From Candidatus Woesearchaeota archaeon (lineage in GTDB: Archaea > Nanobdellota > Nanobdellia > Woesearchaeales > JAGLGH01): a DNA stretch of 64,000 nt. The notes beneath the pieces are model-generated. The model made no database searches, had not been told where the DNA came from, and saw nothing but the letters and a program-made list of their open reading frames with translations. The DNA is taken from contig DAOVBM010000003.1 of assembly GCA_030670545.1 (NCBI GenBank), positions 1,765 through 65,764 of the forward strand, given 5' to 3'. Of the stretch, positions 1,717-60,628 are shown piece after piece; position 1 is the stretch's first letter, and each line of letters opens with the position of its first letter. Position numbers and translations under genes: made by a program.

Positions 1717-1764
1717 CCCAAAATTTGCATAATTATTTAAACATAAGGATAAAGTTTATTTGAT

Positions 1765-27326: not shown

Positions 27327-27524
27327 CTATTTTACCTCTTTTTTTAAATTTTTGATAAGATCATTTGGGCTTGTAAGATCTTTCACTATTATCAGTTTGT
27401 CTCCTATTTCGTACCAGTAGAGTTCAGAGCCTATATCTATGTCCAGGTCTTTCCTTGCCTCTAACGGCAGCGTTATCTGGCCCTGCTTTGTCAGCCTGGC
27501 TTTTGATATGAACTTTGCTTGCAT
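27327..27524 (-). CDS. AbrB/MazE-type swapped-hairpin DNA-binding protein
   Basis: 65 aa; KQGQITLPLEARKDLDIDIGSELYWYEIGDKLII matches the SpoVT/AbrB fold pattern. Confidence 0.55.
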   Translation of the reverse strand: MQAKFISKARLTKQGQITLPLEARKDLDIDIGSELYWYEIGDKLIIVKDLTSPNDLIKNLKKEVK

Positions 27525-27643
27525 TTTATTAATAAATCTTTTGATTACATATTAAATTATTAATATTAATAATAACAATATAATTAATATTCTTATTAAT
27601 ATTATTAATGATATATAAATGTTGCGGTTTATTGTATGTAGAA

Positions 27644-27808
27644 AGTCTGCTAGTCAAGGAGCACTAGCATCATCAGGTCAAAACTCATTCTATATTTATG
27701 TCCTGCTCGTCGCGAGGGGTCGCTCCATCCGGGAACGCAGAGCCTTAGAAAAACAGATGTAGAGTTTTGAAGATGCTTGTGCTCCGTTACACTGGACTTT
27801 CTACATAC
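27644..27808 (-). repeat. MITE-like repeat RE-A copy 2 (inverted orientation)
   Basis: TIR gtatgtagaaagtc / gactttctacatac. Core ctgctcgtcgcgagggg...cgggaacgcagagccttaga is the reverse complement of the family core. Confidence 0.65.
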
Positions 27809-27835
27809 GGTTTTTTGTTGGGAAAAGAATAAGAT

Positions 27836-28666
27836 TTAAACAGTGATAGGGAGTTTACAAACTTCCTTAAAGATTATTTCTGTTTTTTTATTATATTGCC
27901 TTTGAGTTCCAAATTTAATATGGTATTCAATATTATTTCTTTTACAGAATTCAATCACTTGATTTGCACAATCTTCATAAAACATCTCATTATATCTGAA
28001 TTGAGAACTAATTACATTATAATTTAATTTTCCAAAAATGATTCTATCAACAAAACTTATTTGTTCTAATAATCCTTGTAAGTCTTGATTTTCATCAATA
28101 TTTGGAGTTGGATACGGCTCTATACTTACCCATGTTTTTAATCCTTTGTCGTGTAAATATTTTAATGATTTAATCCTATTCTTATATTGTGCACTGTATG
28201 GCTCAAATTCTCTTTTGAATTTATTATTCATAGATATAAGAGTAATACCATATTCATTGTTGATCCCGTATTTTTTTGAATTTGTTAAAGCTTGAGGATA
28301 AACCCCTTTTGTTAAAACTGTGCATTTTATGTTGCTCTCATTTAGTTTTTCTATTATTTTAAGAGTCATACCCTTTACTTCTTTATATCCATACATAAAA
28401 GGATCGGTCATAAAACATAAATGAACAAATTTAATTTTGCCTGCGTATTTAGGGATTTCTTTATCTAGTAATTCTAAAGCATTTTCAACCAGTTTGGGTT
28501 TAACCCAGTCAGAATATGTTTTTACTTTACCGAATCTCTTAGCCATATTGAAAGCATAGCAGGGAAACTTACAACCATGAGCACATCCTTCTACGTGATT
28601 TAAACAGAAATCAGCATATTCAACACCACTTTTATACAAAAGACTTTTTCTTTTGATTTTTTGCAT
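27836..28666 (-). CDS. radical-SAM-like protein with non-canonical three-Cys motif CxxxCxxxC (TcmP-partnered type)
   Basis: GCAHGCKFPCYA near the N-terminus. Gene adjacent to a TcmP-like partner. 276 aa. Confidence 0.55.
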   Translation of the reverse strand: MQKIKRKSLLYKSGVEYADFCLNHVEGCAHGCKFPCYAFNMAKRFGKVKTYSDWVKPKLVENALELLDKEIPKYAGKIKFVHLCFMTDPFMYGYKEVKGMTLKIIEKLNESNIKCTVLTKGVYPQALTNSKKYGINNEYGITLISMNNKFKREFEPYSAQYKNRIKSLKYLHDKGLKTWVSIEPYPTPNIDENQDLQGLLEQISFVDRIIFGKLNYNVISSQFRYNEMFYEDCANQVIEFCKRNNIEYHIKFGTQRQYNKKTEIIFKEVCKLPITV

Positions 28667-28678
28667 TATTCACCTCTT

Positions 28679-29755
28679 TTAAAATCTCATTTCATCTTCA
28701 TTATCAATACCTGTCCTTATCTTACCTGATTTAGTAGTTCTTATTTTTCTTACTATATTAATTTTACTATCTTTTTCCAATTCTTTTAATGCCTGGCGAA
28801 TATGTTTTACTAAATAAGGGGTTTCATCTATTTGCTCTTCAATTATTTCAATGAACGATTTATTACATCCCTTATAAGTTGATAAAAGATACTTCTTGAT
28901 TTCATCAATTTTTATATTATCATAATCAAAAAAAGTCATCTGGCTTTCAGTTTTACCCCTATATTCAACCCTCCCTCTATTGTATTTAGCAAAAGAGCCC
29001 TTCATTATCTCACAACCCTTATAGTGGTTTGTAAGATGAAATAAATAGTAATAAGTACGATTCATCTCAGGAAAGCATAATCGGTATGGGTAAACAAACT
29101 TACAGAATTCTTTTAGTTGTGATCTGAATAACTCAACAATTCTCTTTTCTTTCTCTCTGTTTTCAATATCTTTTAATTCTTTCCATTTAGATGATCCAAA
29201 TAATCCAATTAGTATTTCATCTGCTTGTTCAATACCTAGATTTCTATTTATTCCGTTATACATGAAATTTAAAAATACTTCTGATTTGGCTACTTTCATC
29301 ATCCTCTTTAATGTAGATATCTTAATTTTAAAACCAAAAGGATCAACAAAAAAGAAAGTTGGTGCTAAATTCGGATTTTCATCTAACAATTTATTAACAG
29401 CTAAATCAAAGTCTCTATTGACAAAAATAGGTTTAGCATCTAATTTTTTGTAGTCAAGTATCTTTTTAATATTTTCTAGATTGTTTTTATCCTTATCAAT
29501 TACCACTAAGCATACATCTCTTTTTAAATTTATTTTATTCCTTTGAATGATTTCTGCTGCTATTATTGGAGAACCAAAATAAATTTCATTACCTTCTTCA
29601 TAAGCTCCTTTTCCTCCAAAACAATCAAAATAATTTAGGGGATGATCTTTACCTAAAATTTTAACCCACTTATCAAAGTAATCAGCAAAAACTAGATGTT
29701 TTATTTTAGTTTGTTCCTCATATTTCCATGTTTCAAAGGGTACTGTTTTTTCCAT
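28679..29755 (-). CDS. three-Cys-motif partner protein TcmP-like (methyltransferase-fold, RlmJ-like)
   Basis: YFDCFGGKGAY and FFFVDPFGFK (DPPY-like motif IV) resemble the RlmJ/TcmP family. 358 aa. Assignment from memory of the family. Confidence 0.55.
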   Translation of the reverse strand: MEKTVPFETWKYEEQTKIKHLVFADYFDKWVKILGKDHPLNYFDCFGGKGAYEEGNEIYFGSPIIAAEIIQRNKINLKRDVCLVVIDKDKNNLENIKKILDYKKLDAKPIFVNRDFDLAVNKLLDENPNLAPTFFFVDPFGFKIKISTLKRMMKVAKSEVFLNFMYNGINRNLGIEQADEILIGLFGSSKWKELKDIENREKEKRIVELFRSQLKEFCKFVYPYRLCFPEMNRTYYYLFHLTNHYKGCEIMKGSFAKYNRGRVEYRGKTESQMTFFDYDNIKIDEIKKYLLSTYKGCNKSFIEIIEEQIDETPYLVKHIRQALKELEKDSKINIVRKIRTTKSGKIRTGIDNEDEMRF

Positions 29756-29891
29756 TTTTAAGAGAGAATATGTCTGAGTTTATAAATGCCACGTGGATAC
29801 CTGTCTAGTGGCAAGTGGCTTTTATCCGAGAATTCCGGTAATAATAACAAATTAAAGAATATTCAATCTGCTGCTTCAAAATCATTGCAAA

Positions 29892-30452
29892 TCAAAAACA
29901 AGGAACCGGAACAGAATCCGAAAAGAGTTCCCTTATCCTCTCTGCAAGCGTGTTCTTATCAGGCTTTTTATTAGAGAATTTATATCTTTTCATCTCAATT
30001 ATTGTGGGTAGATCGCTTTCGATAAGATACCTGACCAAAATGTCAGCAGCCCAATTATTGTCCTTTAAGTTCTGCCTGGCTTCTTCATACGAATGCATTG
30101 CGCCAAAATATTCATTATCTTTGTTCCAGTACATAATATCTTCCCCTGAAGAATCATGAATTCTGAAAATATTTGGAAGAACCGTCATTTCTATTCCTAT
30201 ATGCATCAGGATGATGCCAGCATCATAATGCAATCTATTCTTATATTGAGTCCAATACTGGATTTTTTGATACAAGGGCAGTTTAATCTTAGGAGCATGC
30301 TCTTTGTAATCTGCTATGTTCTCAGCCAGATAAATATCACTGCCCTTCAATAGGCAGATCTTTTCAGAAATAGAGGTCTGAGGAGATTGTCTTGCATACT
30401 GACTGAGGTTAATCATACTAATTTGAATAATAAAGAGATTATTTAAATTCAT
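29892..30452 (-). CDS. hypothetical protein
   Basis: 186-aa ORF between the TcmP pair and RE-A copy 3. Confidence 0.4.
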   Translation of the reverse strand: MNLNNLFIIQISMINLSQYARQSPQTSISEKICLLKGSDIYLAENIADYKEHAPKIKLPLYQKIQYWTQYKNRLHYDAGIILMHIGIEMTVLPNIFRIHDSSGEDIMYWNKDNEYFGAMHSYEEARQNLKDNNWAADILVRYLIESDLPTIIEMKRYKFSNKKPDKNTLAERIRELFSDSVPVPCF

Positions 30453-30484
30453 CGCTTCATTTTATGTAATAGCCTTTTATAAAC

Positions 30485-30638
30485 GAGCAGTAGCATCTTC
30501 AAAACTCTAGATGTGTTTTTAGAAGGCTCTGCGTCCCCGTAAGGGACAACCCCCCGCTACGAGCAGGCTGGTTTTAAAATTGATTGAGTTTTGACCTGAT
30601 GATGCTACTGCTCTAAAAATAGTAGACTTATACATACG
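30485..30638 (+). repeat. MITE-like repeat RE-A copy 3 (outer TIR degenerate)
   Basis: gagcagtagcatcttcaaaac...tagaaggctctgcgtccccgtaagggacaaccccccgctacgagcagg...gttttgacctgatgatgctactgctc. Confidence 0.65.
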
Positions 30639-30645
30639 CTTCATT

Positions 30646-30885
30646 TTAATCATCATTAATCTTTTCATAGAATTCCTTTATCTTATCTTCTTTCCATAAC
30701 TTATCCAGTTCTTTATCTGATTCAGCCAATGCTTTTCCTTTAGAAGTAAGTTTCCATGAGAAATCGCACCATCCGTTGCTTCTTACTTTCTTTTCCAGCG
30801 TTGCTATCCCCATGTTCTCAAGCTGGTATAGGTACTTTCGCTTTTCCGCAATAGATGGGTCTTTTTTCATTGTAACATCAAGCAA
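30646..30885 (-). CDS. small hypothetical protein
   Basis: 79-aa ORF; the stop lies 8 nt from the upstream gene. Confidence 0.35.
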   Translation of the reverse strand: MLDVTMKKDPSIAEKRKYLYQLENMGIATLEKKVRSNGWCDFSWKLTSKGKALAESDKELDKLWKEDKIKEFYEKINDD

Positions 30886-31687
30886 TAATCCTTGTTCCTA
30901 TATAATCATTCTTTCCTATCTTATCCAATTCATCAATCCCTATGATGTATGTGAGCATGCCTTCTTTTGCGCATTTGAACCCATACTTTATCTTCTGCTC
31001 CATTCCTCCCCTGCCTATTCCTGATGTTCCAAAGCAGTCTATTTCCTTAAGCATATTTTCAGTCAATACATCTAGCTTCTTTGCGTCATCATATCTGTTA
31101 GGGTCTTTGTCATACACAGCAGATGTTGTTACAAAATATACTTCAGCAGCGTTTATTGCTGAAGACAATTGATAGGTGAAAGGGTCATTGTCGCTGAAAC
31201 CATCTCCATTGTATATGGGAAGCAGCTCTTCAAGAGTCACAAAGTCGTTTGTGTTTGCGATGATGACATGGCCTTTATCCATTGTCTTGTTAAGCCTCCT
31301 GCATATGCCTTCTTTTTCATTAGAGTCAAAATTATTTGAAGTGAAAAGAGTGTAGGCTATATCCATCTCATATCTACGAAAAGCCTGCTGATATTCGCGT
31401 GCCAGCGCATCTGTACCCATGCCTGCGAGAACTGCAAGCTCATCTGCATATTCAATATCTGAACTGAAATCTCTTCTTTCTGGCCTTTGTGCGCCAATCT
31501 TTTCAATGCCAAGCTGAAATGATCCTGATGTTACTATAACAGCCTTAAAGCCATTGAGCCTTAATGCATAGGCCCTTGCTGCTATATCATCTATCCTTTT
31601 GGAATAGAATCTCTGCCCTTTTCCATTATCCTTTGTCAGCACCTTTGTGCCGAATTTCATAACAATGCGTTTCATGATTATCACCAT
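30878..31687 (-). CDS. amino acid kinase-family protein (possibly isopentenyl phosphate kinase-like)
   Basis: MKFGTKVL N-terminus, VIVTSGSFQLG and C-terminal GT.I motifs of the carbamate/amino-acid kinase fold. 269 aa. Confidence 0.5.
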   Translation of the reverse strand: MVIIMKRIVMKFGTKVLTKDNGKGQRFYSKRIDDIAARAYALRLNGFKAVIVTSGSFQLGIEKIGAQRPERRDFSSDIEYADELAVLAGMGTDALAREYQQAFRRYEMDIAYTLFTSNNFDSNEKEGICRRLNKTMDKGHVIIANTNDFVTLEELLPIYNGDGFSDNDPFTYQLSSAINAAEVYFVTTSAVYDKDPNRYDDAKKLDVLTENMLKEIDCFGTSGIGRGGMEQKIKYGFKCAKEGMLTYIIGIDELDKIGKNDYIGTRIIA

Positions 31688-31875
31688 TTATTATTGATAG
31701 ATTTTATGCAAGAAAAAAAGTGTATGGATTAAATAACAATGCAGGATCAGCATCCCGGTAACGGCATCATCTCTATAGAAAGCAGTAGTTTGCCAAGTTC
31801 TTTTATGATGTTATTTACAATCATTATCATAATTTAATGTAAATAGCTTTGTGTTTAAAAATATATCTGAACTAG

Positions 31876-32047
31876 GTAAGTAAAAAGTCAGATGCCCAGG
31901 AGCACAAGCATCTTCAAAACTTAGGATAGGTTATTAGAAGGCTCTGCGTCCCCGTAAGGGACAACCCCCCACGACGAGCAGAATAAGGAAAAGGATTAAG
32001 TTTTGACTGATGATGCTGGTGCTCCTTGAGTAGCAGACTTTTTACTT
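31876..32047 (+). repeat. MITE-like repeat RE-A copy 4 with 9-bp target-site duplication ctgaactag
   Basis: Direct repeat ctgaactag at 31867-31875 and 32049-32057. TIR gtaagtaaaaagtcag / ctgctactc..cagactttttacttg. Abuts the gyrB stop codon (32061). Confidence 0.75.
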
Positions 32048-32060
32048 GCTGAACTAGCAA

Positions 32061-36036: not shown

Positions 36037-36132
36037 AATCCTTAATCTATATCTCAGATATTTAAGTATTAGGTTTTATTCCTAAATTAAAATAAGGCCT
36101 GAAACAAAATCTAATAAGTCATTTATAAATAA

Positions 36133-36428
36133 GCAGTAGCATCTTCAAATCTTGATGAGCATAGCTCATTAAGTCTTGAGGAACAAAGTTCCTTAAGAAC
36201 TTAGAAGGCTATGCCTTCCAAGTAACTTAGAGAGCTTTGCTCTCCAAGTACTCAAGATGTGTTTTTGGAAAGCTCTGCGTCCCCGTAGGGGGCTGCTGAG
36301 AAATTGTTTCACAATTTCTGGCACCTCGTTCGGCTTTGCCTCAGAGGTTCCCCCCGCGACGAGCAGGACTTCTAAACTGAAAGAGTTTTGACCTGATGAT
36401 GCTACTGCTCCTATGGTATCAGACTTAT
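36133..36428 (+). repeat. compound RE-A copy 5 carrying an internal ~120-bp four-hairpin array
   Basis: Family termini and core are present. The insert at 36150-36270 has four 6-bp-stem hairpins (atgagc/gctcat, aggaac/gttcct, gaaggc/gccttc, gagagc/gctctc), each followed by (c)caagtaa/cttaga. Confidence 0.65.
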
Positions 36429-36479
36429 TACAGGCAAGAAACAAAAACCTTTATAAACCCTCTTTGATTCACCAATATT

Positions 36480-41514: not shown

Positions 41515-42618
41515 ATGAGAATAGAAAAAATTAAAAAGGAAAAAATAAATAATAAAAAATTAGTAAAATATTTAACAAGAGATTACAAATTAAGAGATAG
41601 GTCAATAACCATTTTTGCATTACTTCACTCAAGATTCTTAAAAGAGATTTATTATACAGAAGCCTTAGATGTAATGACTGATGGACTTATAACAGTTTAT
41701 GTATCACCAAACGACACAGAAAGAATTAATGTCGATTTAGCTAAAGCAATTAAAAAAGATCCAGATTATATCTCAATAGCATTAAAAGAAGGTATTAGAA
41801 CTTTAAATCTTGTTAAGGAAACCACAGAGAAAAAAATAAAATGGAATATTGATAAAAAGGAAGCATTGACATTGATTAATGAAGCTGAAGATAATTGGAA
41901 TCAATTTGGAAGCTTTCTTGAATTCACTCATGCTTTAGGAAGAATAAATACAAAATTATCTAGATCACAACTAAACACCTTAGGGAAGTTTCATAATGAA
42001 AGAAAAAAAGTATTTCTAAAATTCTTTGTATATTTGGAAAATATTTGCTTATCCATAACAAAAGAATATCCTGAAATCAAACAAGAAGATCTTGCTTACC
42101 TAACTGTTAATGAAATTAAAAAGTATTTTTTGGGTGAATTGGAAACTTCCAAGATAAATAATTTACAAAATATTAGAAAGAAAGGTTATCTATATTATGT
42201 TTCTTCAAAAGGCGCAGAAGAATTGATTACTGATTTTAATAGTATGCGTGCAAAAGAATTACTTTTAAGAATAGAGGATGAAAAAACCCCGGAATTAAAT
42301 GGAACAAGCGTTTCAAAGGGTGTTGTAAAAGGAGAGGTAAAACTTATTTCAATAGATACAAAATTAGGCAAGGAGAATATTTCCCAAAAAATAATTGTTA
42401 CCACAATGACTACTCCTATTATGGATACCTTTTTGAAAAAAGTTGGAGGAATAATAACAGAAGAAGGAGGTATCTTATGTCACGCTGCAATTTTTGCAAG
42501 AGAAACAAATATTCCAACAATTACTCTAATCAAAAAGGTTACCAATATTTTAAAAGACGGAGATTTAGTTGAGGTTGATGCAAATAATGGAGTTGTTAAA
42601 ATTCTTAAAAAGGGTTAA
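41515..42618 (+). CDS. PEP-utilizing-enzyme mobile (phosphohistidine swivel) domain protein lacking the ATP-grasp domain
   Basis: C-terminal GGILCHAAIFARETNIPTI...DGDLVEVDANNGVVKILKK is the PEP-utilizer swivel domain. The last ~57 nt are nearly identical to 46828-46885 inside the giant ORF. Confidence 0.65.
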   Translation: MRIEKIKKEKINNKKLVKYLTRDYKLRDRSITIFALLHSRFLKEIYYTEALDVMTDGLITVYVSPNDTERINVDLAKAIKKDPDYISIALKEGIRTLNLVKETTEKKIKWNIDKKEALTLINEAEDNWNQFGSFLEFTHALGRINTKLSRSQLNTLGKFHNERKKVFLKFFVYLENICLSITKEYPEIKQEDLAYLTVNEIKKYFLGELETSKINNLQNIRKKGYLYYVSSKGAEELITDFNSMRAKELLLRIEDEKTPELNGTSVSKGVVKGEVKLISIDTKLGKENISQKIIVTTMTTPIMDTFLKKVGGIITEEGGILCHAAIFARETNIPTITLIKKVTNILKDGDLVEVDANNGVVKILKKG

Positions 42619-42825
42619 TCTTTAATAATAAATCTCTCTAACTTATCCTAAATATTTAAGTTCTCCGAAGACCAAATGGAGGAGAGTGCAGCGTGACCAG
42701 GGGATCAACGAGAGCGAAAGAGTAAAATTTCTATCTATAATAAATTCTGCGTAGCAGGTTAGAATAGAGTTAGGGCATATCAATAGAGTGCAAAGAACAA
42801 TACAGATAAAGAAAAAAGGGCAAGT

Positions 42826-42992
42826 ATCTATTTACACGAAAAAAAGCAGAAAGCCTTGCCCTTTAGAGCGAGGATGAATGCTATTGCATTTTTGCTTGCT
42901 GCTTTTTTTGTGTCCTAGAAATCCGTCTCAAAAATCCGGAGCAAGCCCAGTCCTTTAGGGCTGGGTAAGTCGGATTTTAGGATTTCTATGAC
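42826..42992 (-). repeat. second repeat family RE-B, solo copy (inverted relative to the copy nested in RE-A copy 6)
   Basis: About 90% identical to the reverse complement of 56157-56330. Internal hairpins gccttgcccttta / agggcaagg and cccagtcctttagggctggg; internal IR tagaaatcc..ggatttcta. Confidence 0.65.
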
Positions 42993-44361
42993 TTTCAGAG
43001 ATTACTTTAATTTGAGTCAATTCACGAAAACCTACAACTCCGTGTTCTCTTCCCATTCCTGATCTCTTATACCCACCAAATGGATTGCAGGAGAGCCAGT
43101 GAGTCGCATTGTTAATTTCAACAGTTCCAGATTCTATTCGGGAAGCAACTCTTTTTGCTCTATTTTTATCTTTAGTAAAAACAATTGAACCTAAACCATA
43201 GATTGTGTCATTTGCGAGATTCACTGCTTCTTCTTCAGTTTCAAAAGAAACAACAGAAAGGACAGGTCCAAATACTTCTTCTTTCCAAACTCGCATTTTT
43301 TTATTGATGTTGGTTAATAGAGTTGGAAGATAGTAAGCACCCTGTACGTCATCTGGGGAATATCCACCAATTACAACTTTCGCACCATTGTCTACTGCAT
43401 CTTTAACTTGACTTTCTAGTAGAGTTAATTGTCTTTTTGCCACCAAACTTCCAATGTTAGTTTCTGGGTCTTCGGGGTCACCTATTTTCTTAGATTCAAT
43501 TTCTTTCTTCAATCTCTGCACAACCTCGTCAAAAATTGATTTATGGACAATTAATCGTTTAAGGGCATCACAAGTTTGTCCGCAAGTCTTGAATCGCTTT
43601 GCATATATTTTGTTTACAAATTCTTCAATCTCTGCATCTTCAAACAAAATGCCTGGATTGGATCCACCAAGTTCAAGAATTGCTTTAATGAATTTCTCCC
43701 CTGCTAATTTATACAATTTTTGACCAACTTTTGTGCTTCCTGTAAACCAAATTAGATTAATGTTATCATTAACTAATTTCCATCCAATTTCTCCATCCCC
43801 ATATACCTCAGAAAACACCCCCTCGGGAAGTTCGTGGCCTAGCATAATTTTTTCTATTAATTTTCCCATCACAGGGCATTCGTCAGATATTTTGAAAACC
43901 ACAGTGTTACCTGCAAGAAGATTTGGAATAACCCCCCAGACAAACATACCAAATGGGTGATTCCATGGTGTAATAACTGCTGCTACACCAAGTGGTTCAT
44001 ACACAATTTTGTGAATTGACTCTTTATCTTCATGGGTGATTTCGTCAGAAAGTGCAGACTCAACATTTTCTAAGAACCATTTTATTTTTTCAATGTGTCC
44101 ACTTACCACTGATTTACTTTCTGTAATCGCTCTTCCTGTTTCTTTTGTAGTTAGTAAGACCATCTCATCTTTTCTTGCTTTAAAGTCCTCATAAATTGGT
44201 CTTAAAAGTTCAACTCTTTTCTTAACACCTAATTCTTTCCAAGCGAGCTTTGCTTTGTGTGCAGCTTGTACTTTCTCTTGTAATTCTATGTCAGAAGATA
44301 CATCTAATTCTCCAATTATTTCATAGTTTTTACCGGGGTTAGTTGAGGTGATTTTCGTCAT
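42955..44361 (-). CDS. NAD(P)-dependent aldehyde dehydrogenase
   Basis: ALDH motifs (FTGSTKVG, ELGGSNP, GQTC catalytic Cys region, EEVFGPV). The last ~12 codons lie inside repeat RE-B. Confidence 0.85.
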   Translation of the reverse strand: MTKITSTNPGKNYEIIGELDVSSDIELQEKVQAAHKAKLAWKELGVKKRVELLRPIYEDFKARKDEMVLLTTKETGRAITESKSVVSGHIEKIKWFLENVESALSDEITHEDKESIHKIVYEPLGVAAVITPWNHPFGMFVWGVIPNLLAGNTVVFKISDECPVMGKLIEKIMLGHELPEGVFSEVYGDGEIGWKLVNDNINLIWFTGSTKVGQKLYKLAGEKFIKAILELGGSNPGILFEDAEIEEFVNKIYAKRFKTCGQTCDALKRLIVHKSIFDEVVQRLKKEIESKKIGDPEDPETNIGSLVAKRQLTLLESQVKDAVDNGAKVVIGGYSPDDVQGAYYLPTLLTNINKKMRVWKEEVFGPVLSVVSFETEEEAVNLANDTIYGLGSIVFTKDKNRAKRVASRIESGTVEINNATHWLSCNPFGGYKRSGMGREHGVVGFRELTQIKVISESHRNPKIRLTQP

Positions 44362-44544
44362 ATATTATTTAAATTAGGTGTACTTAATAAAGATTTCTTT
44401 TAAGACGTGTAGTTAGACAGCACTTGTCCCATTTGCCCTATTGCCCCTACCCTTTTTAACAAATAGAAATTTTATTGAACTTAACACTTATTATAGACTT
44501 AAAAAGAAAACTTTATTAAACATCAATTATTTATTCTAATTAAT

Positions 44545-47500
44545 ATGAATTTAATAAAAGATTTCAGAGAAATCTCAAAATCAGATACTATTATCGCTGG
44601 AGGAAAAGGAGCATCTCTTGGAGAGATGACACAGGCAGGAATTCCTGTTCCGCCTGGTTTTGTGGTTCTTTCTGCTGCTTTTGACAGATTCATAGAAGAA
44701 ACAGATTTGAATGTAGAGATTGATGCAGCTTTAGATGAAGTTAATATCAAAGAAGTGCATACTCTTGAAAATGCTTCTGAAAAAATTCAGGCAATGATTA
44801 TATCAAAAGAAACGCCTGATGATATTAAAGAAGACGTTTTGAAATATTTTAAAGCACTTGATTCTAAATTTGTTGCAGTTCGTTCTTCTGCAACTTCAGA
44901 GGATTCTGCTTCTGCTGCATGGGCAGGACAATTAGATAGCTTTCTTAATACAACAAAAGAAACTCTCTTAGAAAATGTTAAAAAATGCTGGGCTTCGTTA
45001 TTTACTCCACGAGCTATATTTTATAGGTTTGAAAAGAAATTAGAAAAAGACAAAATTTCTGTTGCTGTTGTTGTTCAAAAGATGATTCAAAGCGAAGAAT
45101 CAGGAATCGCTTTTTCTGTTCACCCAGTTACACAAGATGAAAACCAAATAATTATTGAAGCAGGTTTTGGTTTAGGAGAAGCTATTGTTTCAGGCTCAAT
45201 TACCCCAGACAGTTATGTTATAGATAAACAAGGATTTAATATTTTAGATATAAATGTGAATGAGCAGAGTAAAGCATTATTCAAACAAAGCAATGGTGGA
45301 AACGAGTGGAAAGAGTTAGGAGAAAAAGGAAAGAAACAGGTTTTATCTGAAAAAGAGATTACTGAATTATCTAAACTTATTGTAAAAATCGAGAATCATT
45401 ATGGCTTCCCATGCGATATAGAATGGGCAAAAGAGAAAGGTAAATTCTATATTGTACAGAGCAGGCCTATTACTACGTTAAACAAAACGAAAAAGGAATC
45501 CAATACAATTAAATTGGTTTTAGGTAATCAAGATATTGATACTTCCATGCTTACATTAGAAATGACCTGGAGAGGCATGAATGATAAAAAGATTAAGTCC
45601 CAAGTTGGATTTAAAACTCCTCTTTTTTCTTGCGAAATTATCAATGGAAGAACAATAAATGGTTATATTAATCCAAAAGAATTTAAAACATTTGTAGGAA
45701 GATGTGTAAAAAGGATATTAGTAGACAAGAACTTATTAAAACATTTGAAGCAAAAATCAGAAGAGTTTGCCTCTAAAGTACAAAATATCGCTCTTGAAAA
45801 TATAAGTAAAATAGATGAGATGAATAATGATTCTTTTGCTAATCTGTTAGAAAAAATGCAGCAATATCAAAAAGAATTATCTTCATATGGAACAGTGGTT
45901 GCTTTTGTAGATGTTTTTGGAGAATTTTCCAACAAAACATCTGAAATTATTAACTCTCGTAAAAATTTAAAATATCCATCCCACATATATACTCAAGTTT
46001 TATGTAACCCTGAAATAAGAAGCCTGACAGAGCAGGCTTATAGTGATATTAAAACATCAAAAGGATCAGAAGAAAAATTGATTGAAAAATATTTTTGGTT
46101 AGATCAAGGATATATTGGAAGAGGAATTAGTAAAAAAGAAATTAAGGATATAAAAAAATGGCAACTAAAAGAGGAAATATTGCCTAAAAAAGAAATATTG
46201 TTGAAAGAGTTATCTTTAACAGAAAAGGAAAAAGATATTTTGAATATTTCTAAACAACTAATTTACATTAAATCATTAAGAGCTGATTCAAGACAATTTA
46301 TTCATGTTGTAGTAAATAGAATAATAGATAAATTATCAAAAGAATGGAATGAACCAGTTCTAAATTTAGAGTCTCTTACAGCTGATGAAGTAATAGGAAT
46401 TCTAAAACAAAAAATGCAAATCCCATTGGAATTAAACTCCAGAGTTGAACATAGTATTTTTACAATTGAAAAAGAGGGCTATAAAATACTTAAAGGAAAA
46501 GAAGCAAATGTTTTTATTGAAGAAAATATTTTAAAAGAAGAACTAAAAGATGTTAAGGAGATCACTGGTCAAGTTGCAAATCCTGGGAAAGTAAAAGGAA
46601 AGGTGAAGTTGATTTTTGGTCCTCAACATAGTAATAAAGTGCAGGAAGGAGATATACTAGTATCAACTGTGACTAGCCCACAATTATTACCTGCGATGAA
46701 AAAATCGGCAGCCTTTGTAACTGACTTAGGCGGAATTACTTCTCATGCAGCAATAGTTTCCAGAGAATTAAATAAGCCCTGTATTGTTGGCACTGAAATA
46801 GCAACTCAAATCTTAAGCGACGGAGATTTAGTTGAGGTTGATGCAAATAACGGAGTTGTTAAAATTCTTAAAAAAGCTAATGGCTCCCCTTGTGATATAG
46901 AATTGGCAAAAGAGGAAGGTAAATCTAAAATTAGTAATCTTAAAAACAATTTTTATATACTACACACTTCTGTATCTGGATTTAGTTTGTTATTATTTGA
47001 TCTTATGCTTAATATTAAAACTTACGGTGCAGTTGATTATAGGGTTTTATGTGAAAATGATATATCTTTAATGTATTTAACAAAAAAAGGAATGAAACAA
47101 GCATACCAATTAAGTAAAAAATTACTCAATAACAATTTGTTTACAAAAATATTTAATGATTCCAAAAAACTAAATGATAATTTAAAAGCATATAAACCCT
47201 CGAATCTAAATGGGAAAAATATAATTGAGGAATGGGAAAAATATGTAAAACTAGTTAATGAATTTTGTCGATTATATAGGTTTTATGAACAACCATTTCA
47301 ACAAGCATTAGAAGAAAATGTTTTAAGCTATATTCCAGAACAGAAATTAATGGAATATCTATCTAATTCTAATAAAAAACAAACAAAAAACATTAACATC
47401 AGTAGTGAGGGAAAAGTTGCTCTTGATAGGTTAATAAAACTTGGAAATATGAAATTAGAATTACATAAAAATGCGGCGAGATTAGTCACAATAGATTTGA

Positions 47501-50500
47501 TGAAGTTTGTGAAGTTTGTCGCTCAGAAAAATAGTATTTCCATACAAGTTGCACAGTCTTTAAGAAATAACGAATTTATGGATGCAATGACTGGAAAACC
47601 TGCTAATATTAGATTAGCAAAAGAACGTTTAAATGGTTGTGCATTAGTAAAAAGAAATAATAGTTGGTATTTTGATTCAGGAGACAAATATTTATATTGG
47701 AAAAATAAGATACAGAAAACTCAAAGTAAAAAAATAATTGGCAATATTGCATTTCCTGGAAAGGTAAGAGGGAAGGTTGTACTACACCTATCATGGACAG
47801 ATACTACAAAACTTAGTAAAGGCGATATTTTAGTAACCGGGATGACAAACCCTCAAATGATTCCCTTTATTAAAAATGCAGGGGCAATAATTACTGACGA
47901 AGGAGGGATCACTTGTCATGCTGCAATAATTTCTCGTGAGATGAGAAAGCCTTGTATTACAGGAACAAAAAATGCAACGCAATTATTGAAAGATGGAGAT
48001 TTAGTTGAGGTTGATGCTAATAAGGGAACTGTTACAATTCTTAAAAAAGCTAATGGCTTCACCAGTGATATAGAATTGGCAAAAGAGAAAGGTAAATCTT
48101 CTATTGTGCAGAGCAGACCGAGAACTACCATGGATAAAATATCTAAAGACCAAAGAATCTTTAAGATAGAGAAAAACAGCAATTATTTTCCTGTAGTATC
48201 TAGAAAACTCTCTTTACTTCACAAAAGTATTGGTGTTTTAGGGATTACTGATAGCAACATATATCAAAGAATTTTTGGTTTTCCTACAAGATATAAACCA
48301 TTTTATGATAGCCAACAAGGACTTTATTTTAACCGAAAATCAGTAGAATATGAAAAAAAAGAGATTTTAAAAAAGATATCAAAAGATCCAAAATATTTAG
48401 AAAAGATTTCTAAAAAATGTGAATGTGATGGAGATAAACTTTTAGATTTTAGTAAACAAATAAAAAAAACAGATTTTTCCAAAAAAACAGATGCACAGAT
48501 AAAAAATATTACTCAAAAAATTTTCAAATCTTATATTGAGTATACAGCATATATAATGCCTATTCTTTCAGTTCAGGAATATTTGGAGAAAAACATTAGA
48601 AAAAATATTGAAAAGACCATAAAAAATAAAAAACAGATAGAGAAATATTTGCATATTTTAACTGTGCCAATTAAGAATAATTTTGGTTATTTTGAACAGA
48701 TTGAAATCTTAAAATTAGCAAATTTTTATAAAAATAATAAAAACAAGATTATTCCTGCTTTAAAAAGAAAGATTGATAGATATCTTTTTGAGTTTAGTTC
48801 TATTGGCGTGAAATATGGAATCGGGAAATTATGGACTGAAAAAAGCGTAATAGAAAGGATAATTTATTTATCCAAAAAATATCCAGATAAAAAATTAAAA
48901 CATTTGCAAGATTTTCCAAAACTCCAGCAAGAAAAAATTGATTATGTTTTAAAAGAACTAAAGGCAAACAAAAATTTTAGAAAATTTGTTAAAATAGCAA
49001 GAATTTATATTTATTTAAGAACATATAGGACTGATATTATAAGCAATGCACTTGCCAATATGTTTCCTTTATTTGGAGAGATTGCCAAGAGAAATAATGC
49101 TGAATTAGAGGATATATTAAAGTGTTTGTCTAAAGAGATTATTAGTTTTGATATCCCTGATAGAGAATTCTTAAATATGAGGAATAAAACAATTTTAATA
49201 AGGAGCATTAATGGCAGGATGTATTATATATACGGAAAGGAAGCAGAAGAATTAACTAATAATCTTAAAAAGTCTGTTGGATTATATAATGAAAAAGATC
49301 AAGTAAACAAAAAGATAAACAGTTTAATAAAAGGTAGTGCGGCTAATATAGGTAAGGTAAAGGGAGAAGTAAAAATAGTTTTAGATAATAGTCAACTGGA
49401 TAATGTTTTTGATGGTGATATCCTAGTTGCTTCAATGACTACTCCTGATTTCGTTCCTGCAATGGAAAAGGCATCAGCATTTATTACAGATGAAGGTGGG
49501 ATATTATGTCATGCAGCGATTGTATCAAGAGAAATGAATAAACCATGCATAATCGGAACCAAAGTTGCCACTAAAGTTTTAAAAGATGGAGATTTAGTAG
49601 AAGTCGATGCAGATAAAGGAACTGTTACAATTCTTAAAAAAGCTAATGGTTCCCCTTGTGATATAGAATTGGCAAAAGAGAAAGGTAAATCCTCTATTGT
49701 GCAGAGCAGGCCGAGAAGTACCTTAAAAAATAAAGATTTAAAGAATAAAGATCAGGAAATATTTCAAATAATACGTGATAGGGAAATTATGTTGGCGCCA
49801 GTATATTGGGTACCAATGTCTATTACTTCGTTAGGAGCTAAGAGAATATATGGGATTATTAATAAAAACACATATCAAATATACAAAAATGGAAGAATGA
49901 AGGCTGTTTTTATAAAAAATGAAGTTGATCAAATTAGGGAGTGCATAGTAAGCAAAATATTAGATGATAATAATTATTTTAATAGAATTAGAAAGCAAAT
50001 TGAAAATAGAGAAAATAAGCTAAATAATTATTTTAAATATTTTAAGTCTATCAATCTATCTGATTTAAGTCTCCATAAAATTATAGGCTTAATCAGAAGA
50101 ATGGAAAAAGTCTACATTGATTATGAAGATTCTAACATATCAGCATGGTTTATTGCAGCAGATAAATTCCAGGCAGAATTAGAAAAAGAATTAAATATTT
50201 CTGAGAAAGATTTTCTTTTACTTCTTACTCCTAAGACTAAAACTGCTGTAAATCAATTAGAATTTGATTTAAATAAATATTTTAAACAAATAAAAACAAA
50301 CAAATTGGAACTTAAAACTGCTGCTCGTAAATTATCAGAAGATTTTGGCTGGTTGCCTTTTGGTTTTGATGGTCCAGAATACTGGGATGCAAAGTATTTT
50401 GAGAATAAACTTGAAGCTATGTTCAGAGCTAATGAAAAAAAGATACTTTCCAAATTTAATACAATGCAAAAAGAAGAAAACGAAATAGTGATTCAGCAGA

Positions 50501-51198
50501 AAGCTCTAATAATTAAATATGGACTAAATAAAAATAAACAACACCTTATTGATATTATGAATTATATAATAGTATTAACTGATAAAAGAAAAAGGCTTGT
50601 AGTTCAAACTTACTATTATTATTCTCTTATATTGAAAGAATTAGAAAAACGATATGATGTCCCATACACAAATTTAAAATATCTGTTTGCAGATGAATTA
50701 TATTTATTAGATGAACATAAACAAAAAATTTTACAATTAAGCAATAATAGAAGAAATAATGAATTTGTTGTTTTATATCAAAAAGGGAAATACACTATTC
50801 TATCCAAAAAAGCACAAAAACAATTTTTAAAAAAATTAACAAAACAATCAACCTCTTCTGTAATAAATGGGATGGTTGCTTCACAAGGTCCTAAAAAAAA
50901 ATATAAAGGCACTGTAAAAATCTTATTATCTCCAAAAGAAGTGGGAAAAATTAAAAAAGGAGATTTTTTAGTGGCTACTATGACTACTCCTGATTATATC
51001 ACTGCAATGCATCGTGCTGGAGGGTTTATAACTGATGAAGGAGGAGTTACTTGTCATGCTGCCATCACAGCAAGAGAAATGAATAAACCATGCATAATCG
51101 GAACCAAAGTTGCCACTAAAGTTTTAAAGGATGGAGATTTAGTAGAAGTTGATGCTAATAAGGGAACTGTTAAAAAAATAAATAAAACAATGAGGTGA
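44545..51198 (+). CDS. giant multi-module PEP-synthase/rifampicin-phosphotransferase-like protein: one PPDK_N ATP-grasp domain plus four iterated middle + phosphohistidine-swivel modules
   Basis: N-terminus IIAGGKGASLGEMTQAGIPVPPGF...CDIEWAKEKGKFYIVQSRPITT is the PpsA/PPDK ATP-grasp. Swivel domains GG(I/V)T(S/C)HAAI..RE..KPCI(V/I)GT at about aa 730, 1120, 1650 and 2170. Each module junction retains ANG(S/F)(P/T)(C/S)DIELAKE(E/K)GKS(S/K)I(VQSRPR), a relic of the ATP-grasp tail. 2217 aa. Confidence 0.7.
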   Translation: MNLIKDFREISKSDTIIAGGKGASLGEMTQAGIPVPPGFVVLSAAFDRFIEETDLNVEIDAALDEVNIKEVHTLENASEKIQAMIISKETPDDIKEDVLKYFKALDSKFVAVRSSATSEDSASAAWAGQLDSFLNTTKETLLENVKKCWASLFTPRAIFYRFEKKLEKDKISVAVVVQKMIQSEESGIAFSVHPVTQDENQIIIEAGFGLGEAIVSGSITPDSYVIDKQGFNILDINVNEQSKALFKQSNGGNEWKELGEKGKKQVLSEKEITELSKLIVKIENHYGFPCDIEWAKEKGKFYIVQSRPITTLNKTKKESNTIKLVLGNQDIDTSMLTLEMTWRGMNDKKIKSQVGFKTPLFSCEIINGRTINGYINPKEFKTFVGRCVKRILVDKNLLKHLKQKSEEFASKVQNIALENISKIDEMNNDSFANLLEKMQQYQKELSSYGTVVAFVDVFGEFSNKTSEIINSRKNLKYPSHIYTQVLCNPEIRSLTEQAYSDIKTSKGSEEKLIEKYFWLDQGYIGRGISKKEIKDIKKWQLKEEILPKKEILLKELSLTEKEKDILNISKQLIYIKSLRADSRQFIHVVVNRIIDKLSKEWNEPVLNLESLTADEVIGILKQKMQIPLELNSRVEHSIFTIEKEGYKILKGKEANVFIEENILKEELKDVKEITGQVANPGKVKGKVKLIFGPQHSNKVQEGDILVSTVTSPQLLPAMKKSAAFVTDLGGITSHAAIVSRELNKPCIVGTEIATQILSDGDLVEVDANNGVVKILKKANGSPCDIELAKEEGKSKISNLKNNFYILHTSVSGFSLLLFDLMLNIKTYGAVDYRVLCENDISLMYLTKKGMKQAYQLSKKLLNNNLFTKIFNDSKKLNDNLKAYKPSNLNGKNIIEEWEKYVKLVNEFCRLYRFYEQPFQQALEENVLSYIPEQKLMEYLSNSNKKQTKNINISSEGKVALDRLIKLGNMKLELHKNAARLVTIDLMKFVKFVAQKNSISIQVAQSLRNNEFMDAMTGKPANIRLAKERLNGCALVKRNNSWYFDSGDKYLYWKNKIQKTQSKKIIGNIAFPGKVRGKVVLHLSWTDTTKLSKGDILVTGMTNPQMIPFIKNAGAIITDEGGITCHAAIISREMRKPCITGTKNATQLLKDGDLVEVDANKGTVTILKKANGFTSDIELAKEKGKSSIVQSRPRTTMDKISKDQRIFKIEKNSNYFPVVSRKLSLLHKSIGVLGITDSNIYQRIFGFPTRYKPFYDSQQGLYFNRKSVEYEKKEILKKISKDPKYLEKISKKCECDGDKLLDFSKQIKKTDFSKKTDAQIKNITQKIFKSYIEYTAYIMPILSVQEYLEKNIRKNIEKTIKNKKQIEKYLHILTVPIKNNFGYFEQIEILKLANFYKNNKNKIIPALKRKIDRYLFEFSSIGVKYGIGKLWTEKSVIERIIYLSKKYPDKKLKHLQDFPKLQQEKIDYVLKELKANKNFRKFVKIARIYIYLRTYRTDIISNALANMFPLFGEIAKRNNAELEDILKCLSKEIISFDIPDREFLNMRNKTILIRSINGRMYYIYGKEAEELTNNLKKSVGLYNEKDQVNKKINSLIKGSAANIGKVKGEVKIVLDNSQLDNVFDGDILVASMTTPDFVPAMEKASAFITDEGGILCHAAIVSREMNKPCIIGTKVATKVLKDGDLVEVDADKGTVTILKKANGSPCDIELAKEKGKSSIVQSRPRSTLKNKDLKNKDQEIFQIIRDREIMLAPVYWVPMSITSLGAKRIYGIINKNTYQIYKNGRMKAVFIKNEVDQIRECIVSKILDDNNYFNRIRKQIENRENKLNNYFKYFKSINLSDLSLHKIIGLIRRMEKVYIDYEDSNISAWFIAADKFQAELEKELNISEKDFLLLLTPKTKTAVNQLEFDLNKYFKQIKTNKLELKTAARKLSEDFGWLPFGFDGPEYWDAKYFENKLEAMFRANEKKILSKFNTMQKEENEIVIQQKALIIKYGLNKNKQHLIDIMNYIIVLTDKRKRLVVQTYYYYSLILKELEKRYDVPYTNLKYLFADELYLLDEHKQKILQLSNNRRNNEFVVLYQKGKYTILSKKAQKQFLKKLTKQSTSSVINGMVASQGPKKKYKGTVKILLSPKEVGKIKKGDFLVATMTTPDYITAMHRAGGFITDEGGVTCHAAITAREMNKPCIIGTKVATKVLKDGDLVEVDANKGTVKKINKTMR

Positions 51199-55870: not shown

Positions 55871-55971
55871 AATAACCCCCCTAATCCCTCTATGAATATG
55901 TTAATCTTTAAAGAAAGAAGGAGTATATTTAAAGGTTATTATTTTTTTGTATCTATTTAATCATATATAAA

Positions 55972-56375
55972 GGAGCACAAGCATCTTCAAATCTTGATGA
56001 GCGTAGCTCATTAAGTCTTGAGGAGTAAAACTCCTTAAGAACTTAGAAAGCTATGCTTTCCAAGTAAGTTAGAGAGCTTTGCTCTCCAAGTACTCCAGAT
56101 GTGTTTTTCGAAGGCTCTGTGTTCCCGGATGGAGCGACCCCTCACGACGAGCAGGATGTCATAGAAATCCTAAACTCCGACTTGCCCAGCCCTAAAGGAC
56201 TGGGCTTGCGCCGGATTTTCGAGACGGATTTCTAGGACACAAAATAAAGCAGGAATCAAAAATGCAATAGCATTCATCCTCGCCCTAAAGGGCAAGGCTT
56301 TCTGCTTTTTTTCGTGTAAAGATAGAATGAGTTTTGACCTGATGATGCTACTGCTTTTTTATATGCGACTTATTA
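55972..56375 (+). repeat. compound RE-A copy 6 containing both the four-hairpin array and a nested RE-B copy
   Basis: Family termini ggagcacaagcatcttcaaa / tgatgatgctactgc, hairpin array at 55992-56100, RE-B insert at 56157-56330. The 3' end supplies the last 9 codons of the P-type ATPase. Confidence 0.7.
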
Positions 56376-59263: not shown

Positions 59264-59380
59264 ATAGTTAAAACACCCATCCCCTATTTAAATGCCTGAG
59301 GTATTTTTAAATAGTTTTGTTTTCTCTATAGAATGATAACAAGAGAAATGTTTATAAAGCTCTTTTCAACTCTGTACTAT

Positions 59381-59980: not shown

Positions 59981-60004
59981 ATTTCCAAGCAATTTGTAAA
60001 AAAA

Positions 60005-60604: not shown

Positions 60605-60628
60605 ATTTCCAAGCAATTTGTAAAAAAA

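Follow-up and report, generated by a model that had tools for sequence, protein, structure and literature searches.

Two oppositely oriented copies of a repeated element, RE-A, bracket a small region on a contig of Candidatus Woesearchaeota archaeon (GenBank assembly GCA_030670545.1, contig DAOVBM010000003.1). Between them lie the genes for a TcmP-family protein with a methyltransferase-like fold and for a radical-SAM (rSAM) protein with an unusual three-cysteine motif. This locus raises two questions: what does the gene pair do, and was it carried to its present site by the two repeats? A first-pass annotation of the region had described the arrangement as composite-transposon-like and had guessed at a role in nucleic-acid modification or defence. 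We consider both questions here, using "the window" for the whole stretch of 64,000 nucleotides that was analysed. The features that matter for the argument are the following, in window coordinates.

27327..27524 (-): AbrB/MazE-type gene of 65 aa on the host side (PF04014, 33.7 bits; GC 38.9%)
27633..27807 (-): RE-A copy 2, non-coding, hairpin-forming and MITE-like (nhmmer E 3e-54)
27836..28666 (-): rSAM partner, 276 aa, second gene of the cassette, with Cx3Cx3C at C28/C32/C36
28667..28678 (-): spacer of 12 nt between TcmP and the rSAM gene; 5 nt ahead of the rSAM start codon (ATG) it has GAGGTGA, which resembles a Shine-Dalgarno sequence
28679..29755 (-): TcmP, 358 aa, first gene of the cassette, with a predicted RlmJ-like Rossmann methyltransferase-fold domain (approximately residues 14-258) and, at the C-terminus, a winged helix (269-336)
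29779..29786 (-): TTTATAAA, read directly, which resembles an archaeal TATA box and lies 23 nt ahead of the TcmP ATG
29892..30416 (-): gene of 174 aa, first listed as 186 aa (29892-30452) from an upstream ATG
30465..30636 (+): RE-A copy 3, with the 174-aa gene on one side and the stop codon of the 79-aa ORF on the other (nhmmer E 2e-49)
30646..30885 (-): host-side ORF of 79 aa that overlaps the amino-acid-kinase-family gene upstream of it

The three ORFs between the repeats and the two RE-A copies around them lie where the first-pass annotation had placed them. The motifs it quoted are also present, with GCAHGCKFPCYA in the 276-aa protein and both FDCFGGKGAY and FVDPFG in the 358-aa protein.

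TcmP and its radical-SAM partner

The 358-aa protein matched the TcmP model TIGR04474 with 171 bits against a curated cutoff of 53, residues 14-258 covering positions 1-262 of the 263 in the model, and this HMM check bears out the family assignment of the first-pass annotation. The match is full-length and far over the cutoff, and a three-Cys partner adjoins the gene, as the family name implies. By its sequence, the protein is a clear member of the family, and nothing sets it apart from other TIGR04474 members. It also matched PF22560 GMT-wHTH (38.7 bits), a name whose "GMT" we did not find explained in the literature, and, over its full length, the PADLOC model PDC-M30A (98 bits).

The AF2 model of TcmP (pLDDT 94, pTM 0.91) found RlmJ and DUF519 as its top structural matches in the PDB (E 1e-7, TM 0.58-0.60). 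In RlmJ/DUF519, the 23S rRNA m6A2030 methyltransferase, motif I follows strand 1 and an Asp-Pro motif follows strand 4, and TcmP is laid out in the same way, with motif I after strand 40-44 and DPFG after strand 133-137. Residues D44, G48, G50, D138, P139 and G141 are invariant across 50 homologues, and DP[FYW]G is kept in 91 of 93. The corresponding RlmJ motif is DPPY, and TcmP has DP[FYW]G instead. The RlmJ likeness that had been proposed from these motifs holds for the fold and not for the sequence: the two proteins share 11-14% identity and their profiles do not match, the RlmJ family HMM (PF04378/DUF519) found neither the window TcmP nor any of the 50 homologues at E<=1, and a PDB profile search with TcmP did not reach RlmJ. 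PDB sequence searches, with single proteins as well as with profiles, returned no meaningful matches. Moreover, TcmP differs from RlmJ by its extra C-terminal winged helix and its obligate rSAM partner. From the model, TcmP is predicted to be a SAM-binding, amino-methyltransferase-like protein of RlmJ fold, with a glycine-rich motif I, DP[FYW]G as motif IV and a winged helix.

In the 276-aa protein, PF04055 (radical SAM) reached 45.7 bits against a gathering cutoff of 29.5. Its GCAHGCKFPCYA motif corresponds to C28-x3-C32-x3-C36 and thus to Cx3Cx3C instead of the canonical cluster motif Cx3Cx2C. Variant Cys spacings occur in the radical-SAM superfamily, and therefore Cx3Cx3C does not exclude membership. 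We found Cx3Cx3C in all 82 partner proteins having the N-terminus; given this count and that of DP[FYW]G among the TcmP homologues, the quoted motifs are not chance matches. Unusual but invariant, Cx3Cx3C would hold a putative [4Fe-4S] cluster.

The AF2 model of the partner (pLDDT 86) is a partial TIM-barrel whose three Cys lie in the loop after strand 1, that is, between strand 20-22 and helix 37-44. Its top PDB matches are all rSAM enzymes, and the first of them is spore photoproduct lyase (SPL; E 5e-7, TMq 0.62, 13% identity). This likeness lies at the level of the fold, as the window protein had no match to the SPL-family HMM; the same HMM scored below its cutoff on one viral rSAM partner. 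We also recorded weak matches to the rSAM models Rv2578c and PA0069, and some sources label the homologues "DNA repair photolyase".

Against DUF5131 (PF07505; phage Gp37/Gp68), the rSAM partner reached 21.4 bits, below the cutoff of 28.9, with the N-terminal 110 residues alone aligned, yet hhalign gave 88% probability for its homology to bona fide DUF5131. Considering both results, we regard the partner as a related sister clade and not as a member of DUF5131. The DUF5131 compared has Cx6Cx2C where the partner has Cx3Cx3C, and at RadicalSAM.org DUF5131, SPL and MJ0683-like proteins share one megacluster. Judged by its profile match and its modelled fold, the 276-aa protein belongs to the radical-SAM enzymes, within an SPL/DUF5131-related clade, and this gives substance to what had first been called radical-SAM-like from the Cys motif. 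One search returned 6444 homologues (E<=0.001), and the protein is strongly conserved, with 67-79% identity across bacteria and archaea.

Pairing, extent and origin of the cassette

We surveyed 93 TcmP ORFs, of which 87 had enough sequence to be judged. The rSAM gene lies directly downstream of TcmP on the same strand in 67/87 (median gap 9 nt), the two are fused into a single ORF in 16/87, and in 2/87 the rSAM gene is adjoining but convergent. One further TcmP has a true DUF5131 as partner and one is a truncated fragment. A partner is thus adjoining or fused at 86 of the 87 judgeable loci, and the coupling of TcmP and rSAM is obligate. In the window, operonic coupling is indicated by the 12-nt spacer with its Shine-Dalgarno-like GAGGTGA, and the position of TTTATAAA suggests that the pair may have its own, near-leaderless promoter.

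The pair has a GC content of 27.8% vs 39.3% in its flanks, and its GC3 is 20%; the window means are 36.9% (sd 4.2) for GC and 33.9% (sd 7.9) for GC3. The cassette is likewise AT-richer than its flanks at 48 of 50 loci. Similarity at the DNA level to other TcmP loci is limited to positions 27839-29755, and only the TcmP and rSAM coding sequences are both AT-rich and similar to DNA elsewhere. In our main reading, the unit is a horizontally acquired, AT-rich, two-gene operon of 1.9 kb (27836-29755, minus strand), and the composition agrees with the accessory origin suspected in the first-pass annotation.

The third ORF between the repeats had been listed as a 186-aa protein. It is present, and the 92 homologous cluster representatives all align from M13 ("MINLS..."), so that the true gene is probably 174 aa long. 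With a GC of 35.7% and a GC3 of 38% it resembles the host genes, and Pfam and PDB searches with it gave no match. We considered the ORF as a third component and rejected it, as it has no likeness to the ORFs at the same position in two other loci (L006 and L002) and occurs at no other TcmP locus. The 174-aa gene is a neighbour, outside the TcmP system.

The other neighbours of the pair in the window are housekeeping genes (vWA/BatA, amino-acid kinase, gyrB). There is no methylase, helicase or nuclease among them, and a search for tRNA genes, which could have marked an integration site, found none. The same site was sought in relatives. A scan of genome contigs with the flanking kinase matched a Streptococcus proB alone, and the 598-aa neighbour had no matches when metagenomes were scanned. 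Kinase homologues led to one close relative, L009 from sample 3300033144 (85% amino-acid and 94% DNA identity), in which the 79-aa ORF beside the kinase gene is conserved and whose contig ends at window position 30638, the boundary of RE-A copy 3. Synteny is lost in two relatives at 62%. When the AbrB-like and the 79-aa protein were looked up by exact sequence, the same sample alone, or nothing, was returned. None of the relatives found thus covers the whole site.

Gene context in other genomes

Across 76 non-redundant TcmP loci, DNA methylases and helicase-nucleases are common neighbours of the pair, and frequently they share an operon with it. An Eco57I/MmeI-type DNA methylase is found near the pair at 15 of these loci, at seven of which it lies upstream at a distance of 2-21 nt and in the same orientation. 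The survey also found ResIII helicases with a 3-nt overlap onto the TcmP start, N6_N4 methylases that overlap the end of a TcmP-rSAM fusion gene, and, as further neighbours, SNF2/PLD proteins, DUF1156 methylases and RadC. One type of operon comprises SNF2/PLD, an Eco57I-like methylase, TcmP and rSAM, and another comprises ResIII, a TcmP-rSAM fusion and an N6_N4 methylase. The pair occurs on 4 of 2.9 million viral contigs; these four are Mu-like, and on them it stands beside a repressor or inside a methylase-helicase block.

PADLOC lists relatives of the pair as the unvalidated candidates PDC-M30/M41, which were proposed by "guilt by embedding" and have the same two-gene architecture. The A subunit matches PDC-M30A over its full length (the 98 bits given above). 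For the B subunit the match is weak and covers no more than the N-terminal 110 residues of the rSAM partner, at 25-26 bits for the two candidates and 24.9 bits for PDC-M30; PADLOC supplies no curated cutoffs for these models. The B subunit of PDC-M30/M41 has a DUF5131-type profile, and the partner here belongs to the Cx3Cx3C clade. Apart from this candidate status, we found no functional study of the TcmP/rSAM family in the literature, as the first-pass annotation had supposed.

Possible function of the pair

Since the pair stands in restriction-modification-like operons of many genomes, we read it as a defence-linked DNA-marking module. Our main reading, which is tentative and to which we assign a probability of roughly 0.45, is that the two-gene operon is an orphan DNA-marking cassette linked to restriction-type defence and flanked by independent MITEs. 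For this window, the defence role would be an extrapolation from other genomes, as restriction-type partner genes are absent here. The scarcity of the pair on viral contigs and the likeness of its proteins to RlmJ and SPL at the level of the fold alone also weigh against this reading. The earlier guess at nucleic-acid modification or defence is plausible from the gene context elsewhere.

We infer the complex, its substrate, its chemistry and its role along the following lines. TcmP and the rSAM protein would act as one complex, in which the winged helix would let TcmP recognise a nucleic-acid site and a flipped-out base would be presented in the RlmJ-like pocket. The rSAM subunit could then perform 5'-deoxyadenosyl-radical chemistry on this base or on a neighbour, and a base would be modified as a result, most probably in DNA. 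The closest solved structures of the two proteins both act on nucleic acids, RlmJ on an rRNA adenine and SPL on DNA.

Because RlmJ is an RNA enzyme, RNA is also a possible target. The substrate of the pair may be rRNA or tRNA, as in the case of RlmJ (m6A2030) or of the rSAM methylases RlmN/Cfr, and the modification would then have a cellular or resistance role. The best structural match of TcmP, the housekeeping genes around the pair in the window and the high identity of the rSAM partner across bacteria and archaea are all consistent with this. Nevertheless, we consider it unlikely. The distribution of the pair is patchy, and in 48/50 loci it has a foreign, AT-rich composition; it is repeatedly embedded in operons of DNA methylases and helicase-nucleases; TcmP has a winged-helix domain; and the rSAM fold is nearest to that of a DNA enzyme.

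The defence-island contexts and the PADLOC candidate status could also be accounted for by an effector, a complex that damages or chemically alters the nucleic acid or the nucleotides of an invader on infection and so acts abortively or by interference. Defence systems containing rSAM proteins exist, and the logic would be that of the prokaryotic viperins or of Ophion, an rSAM system. However, the two-gene unit has no sensor or regulator, it occupies the position of the modification subunit in methylase operons, and its fold is unlike that of viperin, which ranked 45th or lower. An effector role is thus distinctly improbable in our opinion.

We give still less credit to DNA repair, in which an SPL-like enzyme would reverse a DNA lesion with TcmP as the lesion-binding subunit. 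Such a role would leave the restriction-system context unexplained and has no need for a conserved, SAM-binding, methyltransferase-like partner. SPL as top structural match, the weak HMM matches to the "DNA repair photolyase"-type Rv2578c and PA0069 and the label given to homologues in some sources speak for it; the SPL-family HMM, without a match in the window protein and below its cutoff on the viral partner, speaks against it. We judge it very unlikely.

The bracketing RE-A copies

We now return to the second question, whether the repeats moved the pair. RE-A resembles MITEs in being short (approximately 175 nt), non-coding, multicopy and intergenic, with terminal inverted repeats that form a long hairpin and with direct repeats that look like target duplications. 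The hairpin folding has a z-score of -4.5 on one strand and of -6.9 on the other. In two copies there are additional hairpin modules inside the element, or a second repeat nested in it. The window holds six RE-A copies, four of them besides the bracketing two, and with six copies in 64 kb it is not remarkable that two lie 2.7 kb apart. Direct repeats of 6-12 nt stand at matching boundaries of all six, with chance expectations from 0.09 down to 1e-4. For copy 2 the repeat is weak, an exact 6-mer (CGGTTT, 27625-27630 and 27808-27813; chance approximately 0.09), while copy 3 has its own 12-nt repeat, CGCTTCATTTTA (30453-30464 and 30637-30648; chance approximately 1e-4). Copy 4 is missing in the relative L009, though the corresponding site there is not cleanly empty. 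A scan of the whole window found no Rfam family at gathering thresholds, and RE-A is therefore not a described RNA. No transposase ORF is present between or beside the RE-A copies; a trans-acting enzyme elsewhere in the genome is possible.

A composite transposon, in which two inverted RE-A copies would have carried the genes between them along as a single unit, would have one duplication round the whole unit and none at the inner ends. The two nearest copies are indeed inverted and the content between them is AT-rich. However, each RE-A copy is flanked on both sides by a direct repeat of its own, the outer flanks (CGGTTTAT... and CGCTTCATTTTA) differ, RE-A is non-coding with no transposase near it, it was found at 0/95 other loci, homology with other cassettes stops at the coding sequences, and the bracketed 174-aa gene is host-like in composition, all of which makes the composite-transposon-like arrangement of the first-pass annotation extremely improbable. 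In our main reading, the bracketing RE-A copies are independent MITE insertions and did not move the pair.

Implications

At the level of this locus, our analysis corrects a tempting reading as a composite mobile element and shows that RE-A, a MITE-like element, has been active recently in this lineage. At the level of the family, it concerns a large group of proteins in bacteria and archaea, tightly coupled or fused and often found in restriction-like operons, to which no chemistry has been assigned. We propose, as a possibility that we regard as less probable than our main reading, that TcmP and its Cx3Cx3C-rSAM partner install an undescribed, rSAM-dependent base modification in DNA and would thereby form the self- or invader-marking arm of restriction-like defence systems, solo cassettes such as the present one being orphan markers in DPANN archaea. 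If this is true, an rSAM enzyme acting on DNA together with an RlmJ-like base-flipping partner would represent a new route of DNA modification, and it could explain what PDC-M30/M41 do.

Gene layout of the locus

The three ORFs lie where the first-pass annotation had placed them, all on the minus strand and with the lengths proposed (276, 358 and 186 aa), between an AbrB/MazE-like gene of 65 aa and an ORF of 79 aa:

27836-28666, minus strand, rSAM gene, ORF of 276 aa
28679-29755, minus strand, TcmP gene, ORF of 358 aa
29892-30452, minus strand, third ORF, 186 aa as listed

The motif strings quoted for the proteins (GCAHGCKFPCYA, FDCFGGKGAY and FVDPFG) were likewise confirmed. In the window, the TcmP and rSAM genes are separated by a spacer of 12 nt with GAGGTGA five bases 5' of the rSAM start codon, and TTTATAAA is found 23 nt upstream of the TcmP start codon; judged from the sequence, this would suit an archaeal operon driven from a promoter of its own. 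An L7Ae gene was found, neighbouring genes carry archaeal DUF74xx/75xx domains, and the best homologue matches are to DPANN; all three indicate an archaeon of DPANN type.

Across the 92 cluster representatives of the third-ORF family, all alignments start at codon 13 ("MINLS..."), which makes 174 aa the probable length of the gene (29892-30416, minus strand). Family members are about 170-185 aa, unannotated, with a proline-rich C-terminus and the conserved motifs MINLS, YLAEN..DY, PWYK, NVGI, HD.SG, W, SYEE and GLK..DW. The 174-aa protein had no match in Pfam or PDB, and its family was found at no other TcmP locus.

RE-A insertions and the extent of foreign DNA

The RE-A repeats reported earlier are real, and the two copies nearest the genes, 2 (minus) and 3 (plus), are indeed oppositely oriented. 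A model built from four copies recovered six in the window.

RE-A copies in the window and their direct repeats
Copy 1: 1548-1720, plus strand, AAATTTG
Copy 2: about 27633-27807, minus strand, AAACCG
Copy 3: about 30465-30636, plus strand, CGCTTCATTTTA
Copy 4: 31880-32050, plus strand, CTGAACTAG
Copy 5, interrupted: 36095-36455, GAAACAAAA
Copy 6, interrupted: 55943-56392, TATTTTT

RE-A is a non-coding element of roughly 175 nt, intergenic in all six window copies, which folds as a long hairpin from either strand (z -4.5 and -6.9) and has direct repeats of 6-12 nt just outside its ends, at equivalent positions in every copy. Two 20-nt windows drawn at random from this DNA share an exact 6-, 7-, 9- or 12-mer with a probability of 0.09, 0.027, 0.003 and 1e-4, respectively; these per-copy chances place the set of six repeats far beyond chance, that of copy 2 being weak by itself. 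RE-A occurs in none of the 95 other loci, and neither an Rfam family nor a parent transposase was found for it. We conclude that RE-A behaves in a MITE-like manner.

The composite-transposon-like arrangement proposed for copies 2 and 3 is not supported. A composite transposon would produce a single duplication, at its outer ends only. Since each copy has its own direct repeat and the outer flanks differ, copies 2 and 3 look instead like independent MITE insertions. The 79-aa ORF has its stop codon within the 12-mer that copy 3 duplicated, and before the insertion this ORF stood about 45 nt from the 174-aa gene. Copy 3 thus lies inside host-type sequence, marking no edge of foreign DNA.

The proposal that the island is accessory DNA stands for the TcmP and rSAM genes, which are AT-rich (GC 27.7-27.9%, GC3 about 20%, against means of 36.9%, sd 4.2, and 33.9%, sd 7.9, over 48 ORFs of the window), but not for the 174-aa gene, whose GC of 35.7% and GC3 of 38.0% resemble those of its neighbours. 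These two genes are the only compositional outliers within the supposed island. Similarity to every other locus at the nucleotide level lies within 27839-29755, an interval running from the TcmP start codon almost as far as the rSAM stop codon. In 48 of 50 loci the cassette has a higher AT content than its flanks, the mean difference being 5.8 points; in the window the excess is 11.5 points.

The contig of a close relative (L009), found through homologues of the flanking kinase, lacks RE-A copy 4, which in the window separates gyrB from the kinase gene, although the site in L009 is not a clean empty one. The density of RE-A in 64 kb and this polymorphism suggest recent activity. The gyrB-kinase intergenic region measures 374 nt in the window (31688-32060) and 116 nt in L009 (3402-3516); apart from copy 4, the window has an extra segment of ~150 nt immediately 5' of the kinase start codon, and L009 has a different 55-nt segment where the window has RE-A. 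The DNA of L009 is 94% identical to window 30638-30997 and stops at position 30638, the boundary of copy 3; contig breaks at repeats are usual assembler behaviour and imply nothing about what follows. The search for an empty site recovered no relative that spans the cassette. In the protein collection, the closest TcmP other than the window's own is 77% identical, as against 85% for the relative's kinase, a weak hint that this relative may be without the cassette.

Other repeats and ORFs were noted in the window. RE-A copies 5 and 6 contain extra internal modules, a series of four short hairpins in tandem around 36160-36260 and 56010-56090. A second repeat of about 165 nt, RE-B, has two copies 95% identical (42826-42995, minus; 56157-56322, plus), the latter nested in RE-A copy 6. 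Another AT-rich block (41515-52103; GC 27-29%, GC3 18-19%) holds a 2217-aa ORF with at least five internal repeats of roughly 1.2-1.6 kb, flanked by related ORFs. Three tandem paralogous genes (59333-61228; 215, 199 and 199 aa) derive from a 624-nt tandem triplication with 75-89% identity. On the minus strand, a short ORF of 15/30/45-nt periodic repeats (1153-1359) would encode a Lys/Ala-rich sequence, and a long CT-rich low-complexity stretch (58400-59050) lies within a 971-aa ORF.

Identity and fold of the two proteins

The assignment of the 358-aa protein to TcmP was borne out by an HMM search, with 171 bits against NCBIfam TIGR04474 (cutoff 53); its Pfam match is limited to a C-terminal winged helix (PF22560). 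An AlphaFold2 model from 50 homologues is confident (pLDDT 94, pTM 0.91), and a structural comparison with the PDB ranks E. coli RlmJ and a DUF519 protein highest (E ~1e-7, TM 0.58-0.60, 11-14% identity). The glycine-rich FDCFGGKG comes after strand 40-44 and DPFG after strand 133-137, which is where class I methyltransferases have motifs I and IV. The residues D44, G48, G50, D138, P139 and G141 are invariant, and DP[FYW]G is present in 91 of 93 homologous ORFs. The "RlmJ-like" label given to these motifs is therefore right for the fold but not for the sequence family, as no sequence method reached RlmJ from TcmP.

The radical-SAM-like nature of the 276-aa protein was also upheld: it passes Pfam Radical_SAM (45.7 bits, threshold 29.5), falls below DUF5131 (21.4 bits, threshold 28.9) and weakly matches the Rv2578c and PA0069 radical-SAM models. 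The Cx3Cx3C spacing, with consensus C-x-H-G-C-x-[YF]-P-C-Y-A, occurs in all 82 partner ORFs whose N-terminus is included. In the AlphaFold2 model (pLDDT 86) the three cysteines sit in the loop from the first strand to the first helix, where radical-SAM clusters bind. The nearest solved structure is spore photoproduct lyase (SPL; E 5e-7, TMq 0.62). When its profile was compared with that of a genuine DUF5131 member (323 bits to PF07505), the probability was 88% and GC---AHGCKFPCYA was paired with GCTKISEGC-INCYA. The protein is thus a sister of DUF5131 whose cysteines are spaced differently. According to RadicalSAM.org, DUF5131, SPL and MJ0683-like enzymes share one megacluster.

We consider both gene identities nearly certain. 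The locus is a further member of the known, named TcmP family.

Coupling of the two genes

Profiles of the two proteins were run against the ORFs of 96 loci, made up of contigs with close homologues, four viral contigs and 80 metagenome loci. After setting aside 6 of the 93 TcmP ORFs as too close to a contig end to judge, 87 were scored. The rSAM gene lies directly downstream on the same strand in 67, with a median gap of 9 nt, and is adjacent but convergent in 2. A further 16 are single fused ORFs of about 640 aa, in which TcmP is joined by its C-terminus, end to end, to the N-terminus of rSAM. The remaining two are a truncated TcmP fragment without a partner and a TcmP next to a true DUF5131. 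An obligate partnership is, in our judgement, highly probable. In the DUF5131 case (L077:237-2133) the convergent neighbour is a bona fide member (Cx6Cx2C) outside the Cx3Cx3C clade; partners of the two types thus appear interchangeable.

Gene context and proposed function

Neighbouring genes were clustered across 76 non-redundant loci and the largest clusters annotated. Eco57I/MmeI-type DNA methylases occur at 15 of the 76; in 7 of these 15 the methylase ends 2-21 nt upstream of TcmP on the same strand, with an SNF2/PLD protein farther upstream in 4 of the 7. At three loci a ResIII helicase overlaps the TcmP start by 3 nt, and two of these loci also have an N6_N4 methylase overlapping the TcmP-rSAM fusion at its end. 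RadC recurs as a neighbour, as do DUF1156 methylases, and the pairs of close archaeal relatives adjoin a type I restriction system, RadC, DUF1016 and HerA-like genes. Two operon types, with genes overlapping or nearly abutting, look like distinct restriction-like systems with a TcmP-rSAM module: SNF2/PLD, Eco57I-like methylase, TcmP and rSAM (L067, L073, L078, L091), and ResIII helicase, TcmP-rSAM fusion and N6_N4 methylase (L020, L021). Among 2.9 million viral contigs the pair was found in just 4, all Mu-like, where it adjoins the repressor or is embedded in a gene block comprising methylase, T5orf172-helicase and DUF3644.

The PADLOC models PDC-M30A and PDC-M41A match TcmP (98 and 43 bits), and the corresponding B-subunit models weakly match the rSAM protein; these phage-defence systems are unvalidated candidates from "guilt by embedding" (PMC10855318). 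A literature search for TcmP, DUF5131 or the pair found no functional study.

The best-supported reading is that TcmP and its partner form a two-subunit nucleic-acid-modifying enzyme, and we give a nucleic-acid substrate a probability of about 0.65. The winged helix and RlmJ-like base pocket of TcmP would bind the target, and the SPL/DUF5131-type partner would perform radical chemistry on the base that TcmP presents. Rival readings have the pair modifying RNA, repairing DNA or acting itself as a defence effector. For the two-subunit enzyme, DNA would be the most likely target, although a defence-linked DNA target is a tentative proposal that we hold at slightly under even odds. The pair would then most likely serve as the marking module of restriction-like systems, and its copy in this archaeon would be an orphan cassette.
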